From NCBI GenBank assembly GCA_043798915.1, contig JAZDOG010000102.1:1-64000 (forward strand): a stretch of DNA of 64,000 nt. The letters run 5' to 3'. Position numbers and translations under genes: made by a program. The notes beneath the pieces were generated by a model. That model did no database searches. It had not been told where the DNA came from and saw nothing but the letters and a program-made list of their open reading frames with translations. The DNA comes from Pseudomonadota bacterium (GTDB lineage: Bacteria > UBA10199 > 2-02-FULL-44-16 > JAAZCA01). Shown here one piece after another: positions 57,511-63,579 of this stretch (positions are counted from its first letter, which is position 1; each line of letters starts with the position of its first letter).

Positions 57511-58446
57511 TCATTCCAAGTGCTGGATACAGCCCTTTGTGAGGCCCAGACGGTGCAGGGCATCCTCCGCCTCGGCGAATTCTGCCTTCACGACCTTCCG
57601 ACCGAGGATCGGATCGCCAACCGCCTGGTCCGCCGGAAAATACTGGCTCATGAGGTTGACCGGCACGTCGGTCGAGAGCTCGCCCGCGATGAACTCGAAT
57701 ACTTTTTCGGATGACGCGAAGCCTCCGGGCAACACGAGGTGGCGGATCAGGAGGCCGCGCCTGCCTATCCCCTCGCCGTCCATCTCAAGCGGCCCGACCT
57801 GCCTGAACATCTCCTTCACCGCAGGGCGGACGTGCTCCCAATAGTCCGGCGCATCCGAGCATCTCGCCGAGGCATCCCTCGTCGCATACTTGATGTCGGG
57901 CATGTAGATGTCGACCACCCCATCGAGGAGCTTGAGCGCCTGCATCCCGTCGTATCCGCTGCAGTTGTAGACGATCGGGATGCAAAGCCCTTCTTTCGCA
58001 GCGATCGCAAGCCCGGCCAGGAACTGCGGGACGACGTGCGAGGGCGTGACGAGGTTGATGTTGTGCGCGCCGCGCTTCTGGAGATCGAGCATCATCCGCG
58101 CGAGGGCCTGCGGGGGTGCGGGCCGCCCGTGGCGAAGCCGGCTGATCGGGTAGTTCTGGCAGAAGCGGCAGTGGAGGTTGCAGCCCGTGAAGAAGATCGT
58201 GCCAGAGCCGCGCGTCCCGGATATCGGAGGCTCCTCTCCAAAATGGAGATTCGCGCTGGCCACGCCGGCAACTTTGTCCGTCCTGCAGACTCCGGGCTTC
58301 CCATGAATGCGGTCGACCGCGCAGTCGCGAGGGCAGAGCCGGCAGCTTTTCAGCGCCGCATATGCCCGCCCAACGCGGCGGGAGAGTTCTCCTGAGGGCA
58401 AGAGGTGGAGATATGAAGGATATGATTTAGCTGAATCAGTCACCAT
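57511..58446 (-). CDS. Radical SAM protein, PflX family
   Basis: CRLCPRDC, HFGEEP, GSGTIFFTGCNLHCRFCQN, YMPDIKY, RHLVLPG. Confidence 0.92.
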   Translation of the reverse strand: MVTDSAKSYPSYLHLLPSGELSRRVGRAYAALKSCRLCPRDCAVDRIHGKPGVCRTDKVAGVASANLHFGEEPPISGTRGSGTIFFTGCNLHCRFCQNYPISRLRHGRPAPPQALARMMLDLQKRGAHNINLVTPSHVVPQFLAGLAIAAKEGLCIPIVYNCSGYDGMQALKLLDGVVDIYMPDIKYATRDASARCSDAPDYWEHVRPAVKEMFRQVGPLEMDGEGIGRRGLLIRHLVLPGGFASSEKVFEFIAGELSTDVPVNLMSQYFPADQAVGDPILGRKVVKAEFAEAEDALHRLGLTKGCIQHLE

Positions 58447-58837
58447 ACGACTCTGTTATGATCTGTCCGGCCTTGTAGTCGATGGTCACGCGGAACTGCC
58501 TGAAAAAATCGAGGCCAATGAGCGCGTCGATGCCCCAGGATTTTTCAAAGTGAGAGACATAGACCGCCAGACTCTTCATCGCACAAGAACATGCTTCTAT
58601 ATGAGGCAAAACAATTTGGCCGTATTTTTGGGTCTGCAATCCTGGTTTCAATTGAACATTCGGGTTTGTGTCCTCAAGGAAACCAAGATGTTGGAGAACT
58701 TCGTCAGAAAATTCTGTAGATGGGGCCCCTGTATCGAGAAGCGCAATACAATCTCGTTTCCTGCCATTCTTACCTTCTACATAAATTTGAAGGAGGATAT
58801 ATCGACCCTGAGTATCAAACGCCGTGACATTGCGCAT
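58436..58837 (-). CDS. Single-domain retropepsin-like aspartic protease
   Basis: ALLDTGA, DALIGLDFF. Confidence 0.85.
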   Translation of the reverse strand: MRNVTAFDTQGRYILLQIYVEGKNGRKRDCIALLDTGAPSTEFSDEVLQHLGFLEDTNPNVQLKPGLQTQKYGQIVLPHIEACSCAMKSLAVYVSHFEKSWGIDALIGLDFFRQFRVTIDYKAGQIITESYGD

Positions 58838-59057
58838 GGGCCCTCCACCCCCCAGGAAACTGGCTTTCTCCTGTATATCGAAAAGCACAGTCCTTATCTA
58901 TCGCAGGCAATTGGTAAACCTCGTTCTTTTCGATAGAATGCCTTTGCACCACCCCCTCAACTATACAACCAAGCGAATTGGTCTTATAGTCGGTGATCAG
59001 CAACCACTCGTCCGGATACGCCTTCTTCATCTCTTCCCAAGTCATCCTTTGACCCAT
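58815..59057 (-). CDS. Small protein (DUF5678-like) coupled to the protease
   Basis: WEEMKKAYPDEWLLI...YTG; overlaps protease start; AGGAGG RBS. Confidence 0.7.
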   Translation of the reverse strand: MGQRMTWEEMKKAYPDEWLLITDYKTNSLGCIVEGVVQRHSIEKNEVYQLPAIDKDCAFRYTGESQFPGGWRAHAQCHGV

Positions 59058-59150
59058 GACGTCCTCCTTCTTGTTCGATCTTGCCCAATTCTACGGCTGT
59101 GGCCGTTTACTTATCAAGGAGAATTTCGGAACTATCCGTCACTACAAATT

Positions 59151-59423
59151 TTACGCTGCCCGTTTATTGAACACAGCCTTTTCAAGTTTCTGCAGCCTCT
59201 CCATGATTGTCGAGGTTTCATCCACAAGTATTTGTCGAAGCATTTGATTGAGGACTGTCTGATACCTTCCCCCAGATTTGTTCGCCAATTCCTTCAGGGC
59301 CTTAAGAACGTCCTCATCAAGATACGTTGTCACGCGAATCTTTGTGCCGCGAAGCTCATACCTAGACATTTTTGGCCCGGATATTCTTTTCATCTTATTT
59401 GGATCTGGAATTTTCTTTTTCAT
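59151..59423 (-). CDS. brnA: BrnA-type antitoxin
   Basis: KIRVTTYLDEDVL...YQTVLNQMLR ribbon-helix-helix; overlaps brnT. Confidence 0.82.
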   Translation of the reverse strand: MKKKIPDPNKMKRISGPKMSRYELRGTKIRVTTYLDEDVLKALKELANKSGGRYQTVLNQMLRQILVDETSTIMERLQKLEKAVFNKRAA

Positions 59424-59685
59424 AAAATTTCCTCCATTTGCGCCACCTGGCGGCGCCGAATATTCTGACGGTCTTCCCTCTGACGGTATAACGCACAATG
59501 ATCACTGTGCCTTTTAACGTTTTTCCCACAGCATAGAACCTGTCTTCCTCTGATGAATGTTTTTCATCTTCCAAATGTATAACCTTCGGATCAGCGAATA
59601 CCTCAATTGCCTCCCGAAACATCACCTTATGTTTGGAAACATTCTTCAGCTCTCTATAAATGTCCCACTCAAAAGCCAAGCTCAT
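59395..59685 (-). CDS. brnT: BrnT-family toxin
   Basis: FEWD...NVSKH..F.EA..VF.DP...HSSEEDR...RI..A. Confidence 0.88.
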   Translation of the reverse strand: MSLAFEWDIYRELKNVSKHKVMFREAIEVFADPKVIHLEDEKHSSEEDRFYAVGKTLKGTVIIVRYTVRGKTVRIFGAARWRKWRKFYEKENSRSK

Positions 59686-59691
59686 ACTATG

Positions 59692-59721
59692 ATTATACAT
59701 ATATTATATGTATAATGTCAA
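59692..59721 (-). promoter_or_regulatory. Sigma70 promoter overlapped by a 25-bp palindromic operator
   Basis: Minus strand TTGACA-N18-TATAAT; palindrome ATTATACATATA-T-TATATGTATAAT at 59692-59716. Confidence 0.8.
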
Positions 59722-59836
59722 TGTCCTTATTGAGATTGCACCGGAAGCTTGGGCTCTAAATAAAGCTCGACAATTAAGCTCAATATAGGTAATCTTTAAC
59801 CAATATTAAGGCCATTCTGCTTCAATGGAAGCGCAA

Positions 59837-60202
59837 ATGAAACATTTAATCGTGTCACTGAAGACTTCAGATGAAGTCCTCGATGAATTCAAGAAGGCTT
59901 TCCGCAAGGCCAAAAAGGGGAAAGTTAAAACTCCTCATTTTGAAATCAGCTTCGACAATAAAAGAGACTTCGACCGATTCGTGCGTAATCTCTATATCTT
60001 GAAATACATCCTCATTTTCAAACCGAAGTCGGTCTATGAGTTGGCCAAGATAGCCAAGATCGATGTGTCGAATTTGAACAAGGTAATGCTTTTCTTCGAA
60101 GAAGTAGGGGCCATCAAGGTCAAGACGATTAAAACATCCGGCCGCGAAGTCAAAACGCCCACGGTGGCATACGACGCCATAGAATTTAAACTGACGGCTT
60201 GA
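59837..60202 (+). CDS. HTH DNA-binding protein (HVO_A0114-like)
   Basis: ISFD, KPKSVYELAK...DVSN, GRE.K.P.V.YD. Confidence 0.75.
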   Translation: MKHLIVSLKTSDEVLDEFKKAFRKAKKGKVKTPHFEISFDNKRDFDRFVRNLYILKYILIFKPKSVYELAKIAKIDVSNLNKVMLFFEEVGAIKVKTIKTSGREVKTPTVAYDAIEFKLTA

Positions 60203-60324
60203 GACACGTGGCAGGCCCCAACTGCTCCGGGACCGATGGTTCGAGACTGATGGTTGACAGTCAGTTGTTTTTATTAATCAGCTGCGCAAAGAGACTGTCT
60301 GGTGTCCAAACTTGATCCTTCTTT

Positions 60325-61788
60325 TCAATCAATAGGCAGCACATCACTTTTTTTAGCCTTTATGCGTTCAACTGTGTTTACGGCCTTTCGAAAGCATGGA
60401 TGGATTTGAACTTCCTCAAAACGGGGTTCATGACGTTCCTCATTAGAATAATAAATTTTGCTTCCACCCTCTCCCCCCTTCACAAAATCACCCAAAAACC
60501 CGATTTCATAAAGTACTCGCATAAAAGCTCTAATGTCAGTGCTCTCAACAATTTGGTTCCACCATTGCGCATTCAATTCCACTCCTGCTGCAAGTTGCAG
60601 CAGCATATCTTCAACCTCCATCTTCGACAAATGATATTTATGGCGAAAGAATTTCGTCTTCCAGTAGTTGAAGATTGCCACAAGACCCGGATATTGGTTT
60701 GAATACTCCGCGCAAAGGTCGTCCAGCTTCCATGATGAATATGGGCCTTCTGATGCCTTTAGCGCATCGGCGCTCGGCAGTGCTCCTTCAACAGATTCCG
60801 TGTAGTACCTTGCCAGCTGAATGAGCTCCCTGGGCCTGCCAAGTGTGCGCTCAACGAGCCAATTATCAGCATTGCTAGTTCCAATTGTGACTGGAAACAC
60901 AGTTGAGAAGGGAGATTTCTCGGCTAGTAAGTTGTGGCAAACTCTATTATAGTTTATTCGCTGATGGAGAATATTTAACAAGTCTTCCTTGTTCCAACGA
61001 ACGCGCTCAATATTTCTATACTTGTCTGCGTGCTGCGTTTTTGTGATAAGAATGGAATATACATCTTCACGCATAAACACACATGTGAAAATGTTAGGCG
61101 ATCTCCCAGAGAGATAATTTGTTGCAGCCAGGAGACCAAGGAGCATATTGTTCGCGGTTAAAGAATTATCCCAACCCAGATCAAGATCATCGATCAATAC
61201 AACAAATTTACCACCATCATTAGCAATCTTCTGCATATGGTGTTCAAGGGATTCAACTTCCGCAATACTACGAAGTTCTCGCTCTACGTTGATTCCAAAT
61301 TCTCCCAAGGATCCAACCTTGCCTTTAACTTTAGCAAGAATATCGGCTACATTCTCAACGAGGTCTTTTGAGGTGCGGTTCAGTTCCACTGCAATGTGTC
61401 GCGCAAATTCGATGCTGTCTTGGGCAAACTGACCTTTAGCTTTATCACCAACGACGCACAAAGAATCGAGTAGTATCTGGCGTAGCCAAACATGTTGAAA
61501 AAATATCTCCTCACCGAAAGTGTCAACTATATCTTTTTCATTAAGAACGCTCTTGATTGAATTATATTTGGGCGAGATATTAATAACGAAAGTATTAGCT
61601 TGATCTTGGAAGTTCTGTTCGAGCTTTTTTCTAAGAGCGCTCTTGCCTGAACCTTTGCGACCGATGACGATGCATTTGCTCTTTTCATAAATACGACGAA
61701 ACGCATCTGAGCTAACAAAATATTCAAGAAGATTGGGATCTTTTTCTGCGCTATCATCGCCCCATTGAATATCTGCGATCTTCATCAT
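60325..61788 (-). CDS. P-loop ATPase (Sll1717-like family)
   Basis: WGDDSAEKD, IGRKGSGKS, LIDDLD.GW, RTLGRPRELI, IHPCF; AT-richer codon usage. Confidence 0.85.
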   Translation of the reverse strand: MMKIADIQWGDDSAEKDPNLLEYFVSSDAFRRIYEKSKCIVIGRKGSGKSALRKKLEQNFQDQANTFVINISPKYNSIKSVLNEKDIVDTFGEEIFFQHVWLRQILLDSLCVVGDKAKGQFAQDSIEFARHIAVELNRTSKDLVENVADILAKVKGKVGSLGEFGINVERELRSIAEVESLEHHMQKIANDGGKFVVLIDDLDLGWDNSLTANNMLLGLLAATNYLSGRSPNIFTCVFMREDVYSILITKTQHADKYRNIERVRWNKEDLLNILHQRINYNRVCHNLLAEKSPFSTVFPVTIGTSNADNWLVERTLGRPRELIQLARYYTESVEGALPSADALKASEGPYSSWKLDDLCAEYSNQYPGLVAIFNYWKTKFFRHKYHLSKMEVEDMLLQLAAGVELNAQWWNQIVESTDIRAFMRVLYEIGFLGDFVKGGEGGSKIYYSNEERHEPRFEEVQIHPCFRKAVNTVERIKAKKSDVLPID

Positions 61789-62100
61789 GCCTCCTATTTG
61801 TCGTAAGACTTTCTCTTTTGCATCTGTACCAATTCAATGCCTTCAAGTCGAGGGTTCTTATCAGCTGGCGGCCGTTCATCTTGCCGGTTAGGGACCCATT
61901 TACACCACCACAGAGAGTTTGAATCCTTTTAATTTGAGCCTTCGATCATTTCATGGGTATATAAACAGGGGATTTAAGCGGGACGCCGCTTTAAAGATTC
62001 CACAAGCTGGGATCCCCCGTCCAGATTGAACAGGAACAGGGGTTGTGCCAGTTAGCCGATGAGGTGCCTAATTGCACACGAAGGTTGCTCGCTATATGGA

Positions 62101-62347
62101 GTGGTGAAAGAGGGGATGACCTCATCAGGCACCTCGCGGAACGAACCGATTTGGTCGGCGAAATGCCGCCGGTCGTGTTCCTTATGCTGTTCACGACGCC
62201 GAAGGCTGTTTGATCCGAGCGCTCAACAATCTGACGTTGATTCTGTTGAGCGCTCGGGAGTTGCCTGAGGCGAGGCGGCATGAGACCGTTACCAAATCGT
62301 GCGAGTGTAGCGCTGGTGCCTGGTGAGGTCATCCCATCTTTCGCCAC
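62101..62347. ncRNA. Candidate structured non-coding element (ncRNA or non-autonomous mobile element)
   Basis: 33-bp terminal stem enclosing 9-bp and 8-bp nested stems and four hairpins. Confidence 0.55.
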
Positions 62348-62362
62348 AACCAATGATTTCAC

Positions 62363-62401
62363 GGGATCGCCACGTCGGCCTTCGGCCTCCTCGCGATGAC
62401 A
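62363..62401. repeat. Half copy of GTCATTGCGAG-type repeat
   Basis: GGGATCGCCACGTCG..CTCCTCGCGATGACA matches the right arm at about 36986-37032. Confidence 0.8.
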
Positions 62402-62412
62402 GCGAGGACTGA

Positions 62413-63579
62413 TTATTTATACAGGAGATGCACCTTGCGTTCGGACAGAAGATTTGCGGGTGTCTTACACATCGACTTCAAATCGTCCAAAGAAAGCGCG
62501 TCGATTCCCTCGCGGAATTTGGATGAACCGGTGAGGAGGTCGATCGCCGGGCGGTTCGTGACGAATTCGTATGGCTCATGGCGCCACTCGAAGCCGCGCC
62601 CTTTGTAGAGCTTGTTCACAAGCCAGAGGAACGCGAGCCCCGTGAGATATGGCTCAAATGCGCCGACGTCGCTTATTATCCATCGGACTCCGTTGCAGAT
62701 GAGGCTCTTCCATTTCTGCCGCGTCGGGATGAAGGATGAAGGGGCGACTCGCACGCCGGGGAGTTTCAGCGCCCCAAATGCCTCGATGATCTCCTCCGAA
62801 TCGATATAGGGTGCGCCCACTATCTCAAACGGGGTGTCGGTCCCGCGCCCCTCGGAGATGTTGGTCCCCTCGATGAGGCACATCCCGGGATAGAGGAGCG
62901 CTGCGGTGTATGAGCACATGTTGGGCGAGGGGTTGGTCCATGGGATGCCGGTGTCGGTCCAGCTCATGTCTCGCCGCCAGCCCTCCATCGGGACGACCGT
63001 GAGATTTGCGCCGATCCCGGCCCGATTGTTCATTAACTGAACGATCTCGCCGATCGTCATCCCGTGCCTGACCGGCAGCGAATGGAGGCCGACGAATGAC
63101 TCGAAGTCCTCCTCGATCCCGCCCCCCTCGACCCGCGTGCCGCCGATTGGGTTCGGCCTGTCGCAGACGACGACCTGCTTCCCCGCCTCCGCGCAGGCCT
63201 CGGCGCAGAGGCTCGCGGTCCAGACGTAGGTGTAGTAACGGCTGCCGACGTCCTGGAGGTCGACCACGAGGACATCTATGCCCTCTAGCATCGCCGCCGT
63301 GGGTTTGAGCGAATCGAGCGTTGCGCCGTAGAGGCTGTGTATCTGGATGCCGCTCGACGGATCGACGGCGGAGGAGACCGCCTCCATGTCCTGTGCCATC
63401 GTGAGCAGCCCGTGCTCCGGACCAAAGAGGGCGGCCATTTTCCCGCCGCCTCTCGCAATCCGGTCCACTGCATGCAGTCCCTCCGCGTTCAGGCTTGCTG
63501 CATGCGCAAGGACGCCGATCCTCCGGCCCTTGAGGAACTCCAACCGCGAATCCATGAGGACATCTATTCCGAGACGCAT
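62413..63579 (-). CDS. namZ: Exo-beta-N-acetylmuramidase NamZ family (DUF1343)
   Basis: LFGPEHG, DLQDVGSRYYTY, DRPNPIGG, RHGMTIGE, PSPNM, SEGRGT. Confidence 0.92.
   Translation of the reverse strand: MRLGIDVLMDSRLEFLKGRRIGVLAHAASLNAEGLHAVDRIARGGGKMAALFGPEHGLLTMAQDMEAVSSAVDPSSGIQIHSLYGATLDSLKPTAAMLEGIDVLVVDLQDVGSRYYTYVWTASLCAEACAEAGKQVVVCDRPNPIGGTRVEGGGIEEDFESFVGLHSLPVRHGMTIGEIVQLMNNRAGIGANLTVVPMEGWRRDMSWTDTGIPWTNPSPNMCSYTAALLYPGMCLIEGTNISEGRGTDTPFEIVGAPYIDSEEIIEAFGALKLPGVRVAPSSFIPTRQKWKSLICNGVRWIISDVGAFEPYLTGLAFLWLVNKLYKGRGFEWRHEPYEFVTNRPAIDLLTGSSKFREGIDALSLDDLKSMCKTPANLLSERKVHLLYK

Follow-up and report, generated by a model that had tools for sequence, protein, structure and literature searches.

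A multi-copy, self-folding non-coding element with a conserved branched interior in an uncultured bacterial phylum

Large folded RNAs found earlier in bacteria, among them OLE, GOLLD, ROOL and HEARO/omega RNA, have repeatedly led to new biochemistry, and to our knowledge these organisms seldom have large, intricately folded non-coding elements in which dozens of unpaired bases are invariant. Among dispersed repeats, REPINs consist of REP sequences in pairs, which RAYT Y1 transposases mobilise (Bertels and Rainey 2011, PMC3116915), and in that account they are persistent in lineages, with the single-stranded fold thought to be the substrate. Bacillus cereus group repeats such as bcr1, together with the ERIC and Correia/nemis sequences, are dispersed intergenic repeats as well, those of the bcr1 type being described as 100–300 bp long and at non-conserved positions, and bcr1 itself as transcribed, with compensatory changes that keep a structure at the RNA level (PMC3184786). 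Here, a structured element is described that occupies positions 62101–62347 (+ strand) of a 64,000-nucleotide stretch of contig JAZDOG010000102.1 (the window; positions 1 to 64,000) in assembly GCA_043798915.1, a metagenome-assembled genome (MAG) labelled Pseudomonadota bacterium. The genome is referred to as G000 and the contig as C53. The window copy is one of two G000 members of a multi-copy, self-folding and previously undescribed non-coding family that is restricted, as far as searched, to one uncultured bacterial phylum.

REPINs and bcr1-like RNA-structured repeats are, on the best reading, the closest known kinds, from which the element differs by a large conserved branched interior, free termini and the absence of detectable duplication. 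It resembles REPINs in being a multi-copy, extragenic, long-hairpin unit kept by compensatory changes, and its core, like REPs, is hit by IS110/IS1111 insertion sequences (ISs). Whereas REPINs, as characterised in the work cited above, are ~100 nt long with conserved ends (REP 16-mers), a variable spacer and copies in the hundreds, the element has a conserved branched interior of ~190 nt on a free basal stem and 1–15 matches per positive genome. With bcr1 it shares dispersal between genes and compensatory change, but neither the 5-bp flanking direct repeats of bcr1 nor the conserved terminal inverted repeats of typical miniature inverted-repeat transposable elements (MITEs) were found for it. 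As far as bcr1 is presented in PMC3184786, the two have no sequence relation, and the element has a larger structure, whose conservation extends over families of a phylum.

Fold, family and covariation

The + strand of 62101–62347 folds with a minimum free energy (MFE) of −151.7 kcal/mol, compared with −88.1 ± 4.8 for dinucleotide shuffles (z = −13.2; 0 of 200 as good), and the − strand reaches −137.6 (z = −12.3). A preliminary description of this DNA, made from the letters alone, had proposed a nested branched fold at this position, and that proposal is borne out. The closing arms, P1 (62101–62133 and 62315–62347), are 33 nt long and 91% complementary, the arm comparison giving 30 matches, two G·T pairs and one other mismatch, as in that description. 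The inner helices were likewise recovered and are backed by covariation in 26 homologues: the pairing 62147–62155/62291–62299 is a piece of helix P2, 62163–62170/62274–62281 is P3, the hairpin 62172–62197 is P4 and the stem 62215–62228/62244–62257, 14 bp and perfect in an inverted-repeat search, is P6.

BLAST matched the inner 190 nt, but not the outer stem, several times per genome in five further members of the taxonomic family, for a count of six of its 13 genomes. A second, diverged copy is present in G000 itself (contig C37, ~885–1152, locus L092; nhmmer E 1.4e-35), with its own 36-bp closing stem and 63% core identity to the window copy. An alignment of 26 copies (A1) was used to build a covariance model (R1; 229 positions, 49 pairs), which matches eight of the 22 genomes of the order and 12 of the 93 of the phylum, a set drawn from a single class, with 1–15 matches in each positive genome and members in four taxonomic families. 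Two conserved motifs, GAGACCG and CGTGCGA, served as patterns for scans of genome and metagenome collections. The strict scan of one genome per species (185,579 species) gave 27 matches, 23 of them in four MAGs of the lineage that carry the NCBI labels ‘bacterium’, ‘Pseudomonadota bacterium’ and ‘uncultured Myxococcales bacterium’; the four others, from unrelated taxa, fail the nhmmer profile. On metagenome contigs there were 44 R1 matches in 39 loci. Of the checks first proposed for the element, those on homologues, copy number and covariation returned this family, the two copies in G000 and a strong covariation signal.

RNAalifold on A1 predicts 49 consensus pairs, of which 34 have changes on both sides. 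Standard pairs fill 94.6% of cells, compared with 76.7% after shuffling of the 3' partners (none of 500 shuffles attains the observed value), and pairing falls to 34–45% when partners are slid by one to three columns. The covariation score is 0.507 against 0.185, and none of the 500 shuffles reaches any of the five measures by which a structured element was judged. The covariation support of the family is comparable to that of curated Rfam families, and R1 is in hand for further searches. One detail of the fold had to be redrawn: GCC-GAA-GGC (62198–62206) and GCC-TGA-GGC (62263–62271), first taken for two mini-hairpins, together make up a single helix, P5, in which 62198–62200 pair with 62269–62271 and 62203–62206 with 62263–62266 around a GA/GA internal loop. 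P5 is assigned as one helix because its pairs change in a compensatory manner in homologues (A1 pairs 94–179, 99–174 and 100–173 go from GC to UA/AU in 9–12 of the 26 sequences) and because the copies of genome G003 (TCC..GAA..TGA) are unable to form the mini-hairpins.

Mismatches within P1 indicate which strand folds. Across 32 genome copies G·T mismatches outnumber A·C by 52 to 23, and in 23 distinct metagenome copies by 60 to 13 (112 to 36 for both sets together), while a hand count in the core helices gave ~43 GU/UG cells against ~12 AC/CA. Of 32 copies, 28 (RNA parameters) or 29 (DNA parameters) are more stable when folded as the + strand than as its complement. As both the wobble bias and the greater stability fall on the window orientation, the + strand is the folded strand, and the argument from G-U pairs made initially for the window copy holds at this larger scale. 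The fold is selected on the + strand of the window, which fits RNA and single-stranded DNA (ssDNA) alike. The flanking G-C skew (3 kb) is negative on the element strand in 24 of 33 copies, a flank of that length mostly mirroring gene orientation.

In keeping with the suggestion of an undescribed structured non-coding element, no Rfam 15 family (of 4227) matches positions 61500–62900 of the window at its gathering score, the best match in a search to E ≤ 10 being AaHKsRNA54 (E 0.93), whose 21.1 bits fall short of the required 37, and on eight further element loci only mir-3145 appeared at E ≤ 0.1 (28.7 against 98). HEARO/IscB omega RNA (RF02033), compared by its generally known features, shares a complex fold of 200–300 nt, several copies and a patchy distribution; the element differs in matching no Rfam family, in lacking an adjacent nuclease or transposase gene and in having a closing stem that leaves no free guide end. 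A divergent 6S-like RNA had also been suggested. 6S RNA is usually a single gene per genome and a rod with a central bubble. The canonical 6S RNA (RF00013) of this genome is found elsewhere (G000 contig C12, 70676–70894, L178; 97.4 bits against a gathering score of 46.4), while the element is multi-copy and branched and has no RF00013 match, and the identity was rejected.

Conserved core and turnover of the closing stem

A full copy is a giant hairpin of ~250–400 nt in which a conserved core of ~190 nt (P2–P6) sits inside the long P1, and ~40 positions in the loops and junctions of the core are invariant. Such an architecture, in which the branched interior is conserved and the ends vary freely but stay strictly paired, is unusual for a repeat. 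P1 is found in all 32 genome copies and in the 28 metagenome copies examined, ranging across the family from 25 to ~100 bp and remaining near-perfect (36/36, 33/33 and 29/29 in examples from G003). The innermost conserved closing step, P1a, pairs CGC at 62135–62137 with GCG at 62310–62312 (A1 columns 22–24 with 219–221), and is 100% paired with compensatory change in two of three pairs. Inside it lies a 7×7 internal loop made of near-invariant or invariant A1 columns that are unpaired in the consensus, the purine-rich 5' strand being GGAACGA at 62138–62144 (consensus GGAGAGA) and the 3' strand GAGTGTA at 62303–62309 (consensus GARYGKA), which together with the GCG of P1a spans 62303–62312.

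The helices of the core are each supported by covariation. P2 (62146–62159 with 62284–62301) has 15 pairs, 99.5% of cells paired and both-side changes in nine pairs, and its 3' strand holds the conserved GAGACCG and CGTGCGA and runs on into the loop; the small loop between P2 and P3 has an invariant GCGAA and GAGACCG. P3 (62164–62170 with 62274–62280; seven pairs, six compensatory) closes a three-way junction, from which the hairpin P4 (62172–62197; stem 62172–62177/62192–62197; seven pairs, four compensatory) projects as a side arm that is different, and still paired, in the G003 copies. P5 joins GCC-GA-AGGC (62198–62206) to GCCT-GA-GGC (62263–62271), with four of its six pairs compensatory and 96.7% paired. 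The strand from P5 to P6, TGTTTGAT at 62207–62214 (consensus TGTYTGAK), is conserved, T94 and G95 being invariant in A1 and their neighbours near-invariant. The apical hairpin P6 (62215–62257), with a 15-nt loop, covaries between copies and differs in sequence and length across the family, with two P6 types inside G005. A further conserved junction strand, GAGTT (62258–62262), is homologous to the point, GAG|TT, at which an IS1111-type element is inserted in two G003 copies.

In two genomes, similarity between copies drops sharply outside the core. The cores of G003 are 0.87 alike and the P1-proximal columns 0.41, with corresponding values of 0.92 and 0.44 in G008. Gapped comparison of the 100 copy pairs whose cores are ≥0.85 identical gave a shared P1 (≥0.75) in 67, and in the other 33 P1 is no more alike than shuffled arms (mean 0.54). 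The idea that each insertion builds a new P1 from its target was considered and rejected, P1 being common to 67 of the 100 close pairs, and for the same reason P1 is held to be inherited with the element and to diverge quickly afterwards. The fast change of P1 while it stays paired fits a pairing-only constraint, and arm-to-arm correction in the long inverted repeat possibly helps to keep it paired.

Searches with P1 itself were negative. The arms of both G000 copies have no other match in G000, and for a 36-nt G003 arm a search of its genome returned nothing beyond the arm itself and its partner; the arms are thus not the short conserved palindromic units of a REPIN doublet. When the entire window element was compared with 50,697 phage records, nothing matched, and with 72,556 plasmids it gave only a 37-nt chance match (E 0.8), phages of this lineage being absent from both collections. 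The idea that P1 arms act as guides or spacers against other DNA found no support, as no genome, phage or plasmid targets were matched, and insertion into pre-existing repeated palindromes is not general, the G003 arms being unique. The outer P1 of G001 resembles a short repeat abundant in the sister genome G010.

Spread, surroundings and possible nature

The family has expanded separately in different genomes. Core identity is 0.82–0.93 within genomes compared with 0.66 between genomes, and the nearest relative of nearly every copy is in the same genome, the exceptions including the two G000 copies, which are 0.63 alike and each closest to a copy in another genus. Genomes of a single genus contrast in their content, with 8–9 matches in G001 and none in G010, two in G012 and none in G007, and one in G011 and none in G006. 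Internally deleted, truncated and interrupted copies occur, and G003 has arrays of two to three same-orientation copies 1.1–1.6 kb apart. On metagenome contigs L138, L148 and L170, full copies are paired head-to-head at 60–130 nt. Contig L136 has its left flank in common with one locus and the element and right flank with another (L139/L168/L169, L142), a pattern of recombination between copies or of chimeric assembly at a repeat.

The account favoured here, and if only just the probable one, is that of a non-autonomous mobile structured repeat whose copying takes in the closing stem along with the rest and whose recognition depends on the conserved core. The whole unit, P1 included, would be copied via a single-stranded form of the + strand (ssDNA or RNA), the conserved core of which would be recognised by a factor encoded elsewhere. 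P1 would serve only to bring the two ends together and, after insertion, would diverge fast under a constraint on pairing alone. A non-autonomous mobile element was among the options of the preliminary description, and is the one that the data favour; of the two marks named there for a MITE, many dispersed copies exist, but target duplications were not found. The family offers a concrete handle on the mobile DNA/RNA biology of a candidate phylum known here from MAGs only.

A number of observations weigh against mobility. No target-site duplication, conserved termini or flanking direct repeat was found: among the 31 copies scored, flanking direct repeats are no better than in shuffles in most and never adjacent to both arms, with only three copies having ≤7 of 200 shuffles as good, and fuzzy stem ends leave duplications of 2–3 bp beyond judgement. 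The outer P1 ends vary between copies even within one genome, so there are no conserved terminal inverted repeats of the MITE kind, and no parent IS shares the ends of the element, the only contacting IS sitting inside it with unrelated ends. Occupied and empty sites of the same genus (G001/G010, G012/G007) are non-collinear or unalignable in their intergenic part; because these genomes are too diverged for empty-site alignment, insertion is deduced rather than seen. A conserved interior with free termini is the opposite of what a cut-and-paste transposon needs and resembles a functional RNA. Both old G000 copies, although only 63% alike, are structurally intact, with R1 scores of 181 and 188 bits, and this could reflect selection on each resident copy for a host function. 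The copies of one genome are kin, so that the covariation and wobble counts overstate the number of independent events, although the slid controls keep the kinship and yet collapse.

Nor was a mobilising enzyme identified, as Y1, reverse transcriptase and IS110 genes do not track the element. Y1 genes (RAYT/IS200-type, PF01797) are present in 71 of the 93 genomes irrespective of the element, with none found in the element-positive G040; they number several per genome, many of them open reading frames (ORFs) of 220–340 aa. G000 has three Y1 matches, the two listed lying at contig ends (C93, 62–391; C71, 22–351), while its element copies are on C53 and C37, and no Y1 gene flanked by copies, as might be expected of a RAYT system, was seen. 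Reverse transcriptase (PF00078) is found in 11 of the 22 genomes of the order, with no match in the element-bearing G000 or G008 and, in regard to a retron RNA, none among the neighbours of annotated copies. IS110-type genes (PF01548) are found in five of the 22, and in none of the element-bearing G000, G001, G008, G011 and G020.

It is unlikely, if worth stating, that the family represents a new kind of replicator or RNA, in which the three-way-junction core alone is sequence-specific and is carried on an arbitrary self-complementary ‘handle’ of 25–100 bp. One possibility would be a DNA-encoded, viroid-like rod RNA that is excised at the long duplex (for example by RNase III) and acts with, or is copied by, some protein. 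The other possibility would be a transposon whose enzyme is specific for structure, cutting at the hairpin base and not at a sequence; such a chemistry would do without terminal recognition sequences and target duplications.

A serious rival to the mobile repeat, although a rather improbable one, is a family of trans-acting structured small RNAs (sRNAs), in which the + strand would be transcribed from a weak promoter of its own or by read-through, RNase III would cut P1 and the ~190-nt core would bind a protein by its purine loops. The ~40 invariant loop and junction positions, the six covarying helices maintained in four taxonomic families and the tolerance of G·U but not of A·C are all what such an RNA would be expected to have. 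RNase III needs a long duplex and acts independently of its sequence, and P1 is a duplex of this sort. The window and G005 copies share an upstream ATTGCA..N15–16..TATATG/TATCTA that is weakly promoter-like and ends ~7 nt before P1, a terminator-like hairpin (62388–62408) follows the window copy on the + strand, and the intact state of both diverged G000 copies is in agreement with a function. In opposition to this, sequence upstream or downstream of the copies is conserved in neither G001 nor G003, and a consensus scan of the window yielded 0 sigma-70-type promoters. In 17 copies the left neighbour runs in the direction of the element and in 14 against it, and read-through therefore cannot feed most copies. 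The patchy distribution with lineage-specific bursts and the truncated and IS-interrupted copies also fit an sRNA poorly.

In the window, the copy just occupies the gap that separates the namZ 3' end from a low-G+C toxin–antitoxin/ATPase islet. It lies 66 nt past the stop of the NamZ exo-muramidase gene (62413–63579, −) and 313 nt from the start codon of an ATPase gene (60325–61788, −) on the opposite strand, its + strand pointing away from the ATPase gene and toward the namZ 3' end. The islet (~58400–62100) has a G+C of ~0.42 against ~0.62 and, besides the ATPase gene, contains a BrnT toxin gene (59395–59700, −), a probable antitoxin ORF (59151–59498, −) and an HVO_A0114-like winged-helix gene (59825–60202, +); no integrase was seen within it and its left edge adjoins a radical-SAM gene. 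The terminator-like hairpin between the element and the namZ stop reads TCCTCGC..GCGAGGA followed by a T-rich tail, and a GGCCTTCGGCC hairpin stands immediately before it. On one side of the C37 copy is a pair made up of a Gp49/HigB-like toxin gene, whose start codon is 18 nt away, and a helix-turn-helix (HTH; HigA-like) gene; on the other is pckA, whose stop codon the 3' arm of the copy overlaps by 2 nt.

Elsewhere, ~70 copies lie between unrelated, mostly housekeeping genes, with neighbours that include Dus, YkuD, FolE, PrfB, QueA, PpiC, RsmG, MnmG, DnaK, GltB, FlhA, Lon, PEPCK and many others. No neighbour protein recurs at 38 metagenome matches, save at one locus present in several samples, and a tally of orientations relative to neighbours (sense 6, antisense 10, convergent 11, divergent 4) has no preference. 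The option regarded as most appealing at the outset, an RNA that works with the neighbouring ATPase (487 aa, AAA_16/STAND-like, every Pfam match below cut-off) as a two-part system, is very improbable. It has in its favour the adjacency in the window, at 313 nt and on opposite strands, which is seen nowhere else: a survey from the element copies outward found no AAA/STAND ATPase beside the others (7 + 29 + 5 annotated copies and 38 metagenome matches), and for this reason the element is not tied to the ATPase. Further, the second G000 copy is flanked by the HigB/HigA-like pair and pckA, the folded strand and the ATPase gene point in divergent directions, and the gene belongs to the low-G+C islet while the element is host-like at 0.58. 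For annotation, the gain is that a tempting false lead, an ‘RNA-ATPase system’, is removed.

Immediately 5' of a minority of copies (the window, C37, G003 L128, L103, G012 L106 and L097) lies an accessory gene or islet, and this raises the notion of an att-like, structure-specific site of recombination or integration, akin to integron attC or folded phage attP, at which the folded + strand captures accessory islets beside the element. Consistent with it are the window islet (BrnT, winged HTH, ATPase; G+C 0.43 against 0.61), the HigB/HigA-like pair on the 5' side of the C37 copy, an HTH and YafQ-like pair between two same-orientation copies (G003 L128), Fic between mnmE and mnmG (G003 L103) and Vsr (G012 L106). 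attC sites, which carry R''/L'' and L'/R' boxes at the base of a folded bottom strand and stand in arrays beside an intI gene, have a conserved basal part and a variable apical part, the reverse of the element, which is conserved apically and variable basally. Selection is strand-specific as for attC, and IS1111 elements target attC, according to PMC11187229, as well as this core. Against capture, ~30 of ~40 annotated copies have housekeeping neighbours only, the far end of the window islet has neither a second element copy nor a remnant, no direct repeats bound the islet, and no recombinase gene was found beside annotated or metagenome copies. Such a site is highly unlikely.

An insertion sequence in the core and other repeats

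Each of two weak R1 matches in G003 is followed, 65 nt downstream and on the same strand, by a gene for an IS110-family DEDD transposase. At both places an IS1111-type IS of ~1.4 kb is inside an element copy, the two copies being different ones (L130, 11979–13410, on contig C3; L131, contig C1, 838200–840700). Subterminal inverted repeats of 14 bp (ATATGGATGCCCAG/CTGGGCATCCATAT) are present in the IS, together with a DEDD transposase ORF and, 3' of the gene, ~200 nt of non-coding sequence, and subterminal inverted repeats and a non-coding region after tnp are given as IS1111 hallmarks by Siddiquee et al. (2024, PMC11187229). Both IS copies, 97.7% identical over 1,608 nt, are inserted at GAG|TT, and the different P1 arms of each element pair across the IS. 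Since the IS interrupts the element and the P1 arms pair across it, the element is the target of the IS and not a part of it.

The position and strand of the two weak matches, as judged from their distance to the DEDD genes, had been compatible with an IS110/IS1111 bridge or seek RNA, or with a transposase-less derivative still encoding one. The order at the junctions is element 5' part, IS, element 3' part in both copies, and five element-bearing genomes (named above) have no PF01548 match. The bridge RNA reading was rejected on the junction sequences and is scarcely credible for the family. As read from its sequence, the element core is a specific landing site for an RNA-guided, IS1111-type recombinase, with 62258–62262 as the equivalent position in the window, and provides a natural, repeated target for such an enzyme. 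Other IS1111 members are reported to target REP sequences, integron attC sites and Tn21 inverted repeats (PMC11187229), which, as that report presents them, are like the element in being repeated, potentially folded landing sites. This likeness tells of the use of the element by another element, not of its nature. Strings similar to the two target flanks, GAGGCGAG and ATGAGG, occur in the downstream non-coding region of the IS, which is what a seekRNA would require. In G005 (L055; contig C90, 198–617 and 880–969), an IS110-family transposase gene stands ~260 nt from a fragment whose only similarity is to the 5' flank and 5' arm of the G005 element copies, an arrangement that may be another IS–element junction.

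Other nested palindromic repeat families are plentiful in these genomes, and the element is one member of a rich, unexplored repeat flora. A different, composite giant hairpin of 490 nt (L175; G010 contig C258, 2200–2720, −) has an MFE of −315 kcal/mol (z = −15.6) and adjoins an endonuclease III gene in G010, a genome that lacks the element. It is assembled from several short repeat modules, each recurring 5–10 times in G010 and G001, and one 48-nt module resembles the outer P1 arms of G001 copies. In one element copy of G012 (L025/L106, contig C51, ~1540–1562), the GGCGAA loop is replaced by a perfect palindrome of 20–22 nt, CCCTGCCTGCCGGCAGGCAGGG, which recurs inside the composite hairpin of G010 and is thus a small, independent REP-like repeat. 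G005 has a second repeat family, with at least seven loci (L056, L057, L059–L063), that ends in a 35-nt module, GGCGCTAGAACCAAAACC...CCCAGCTAAT, which also follows element 3' arms in that genome, and a related module is found upstream of several G005 copies.

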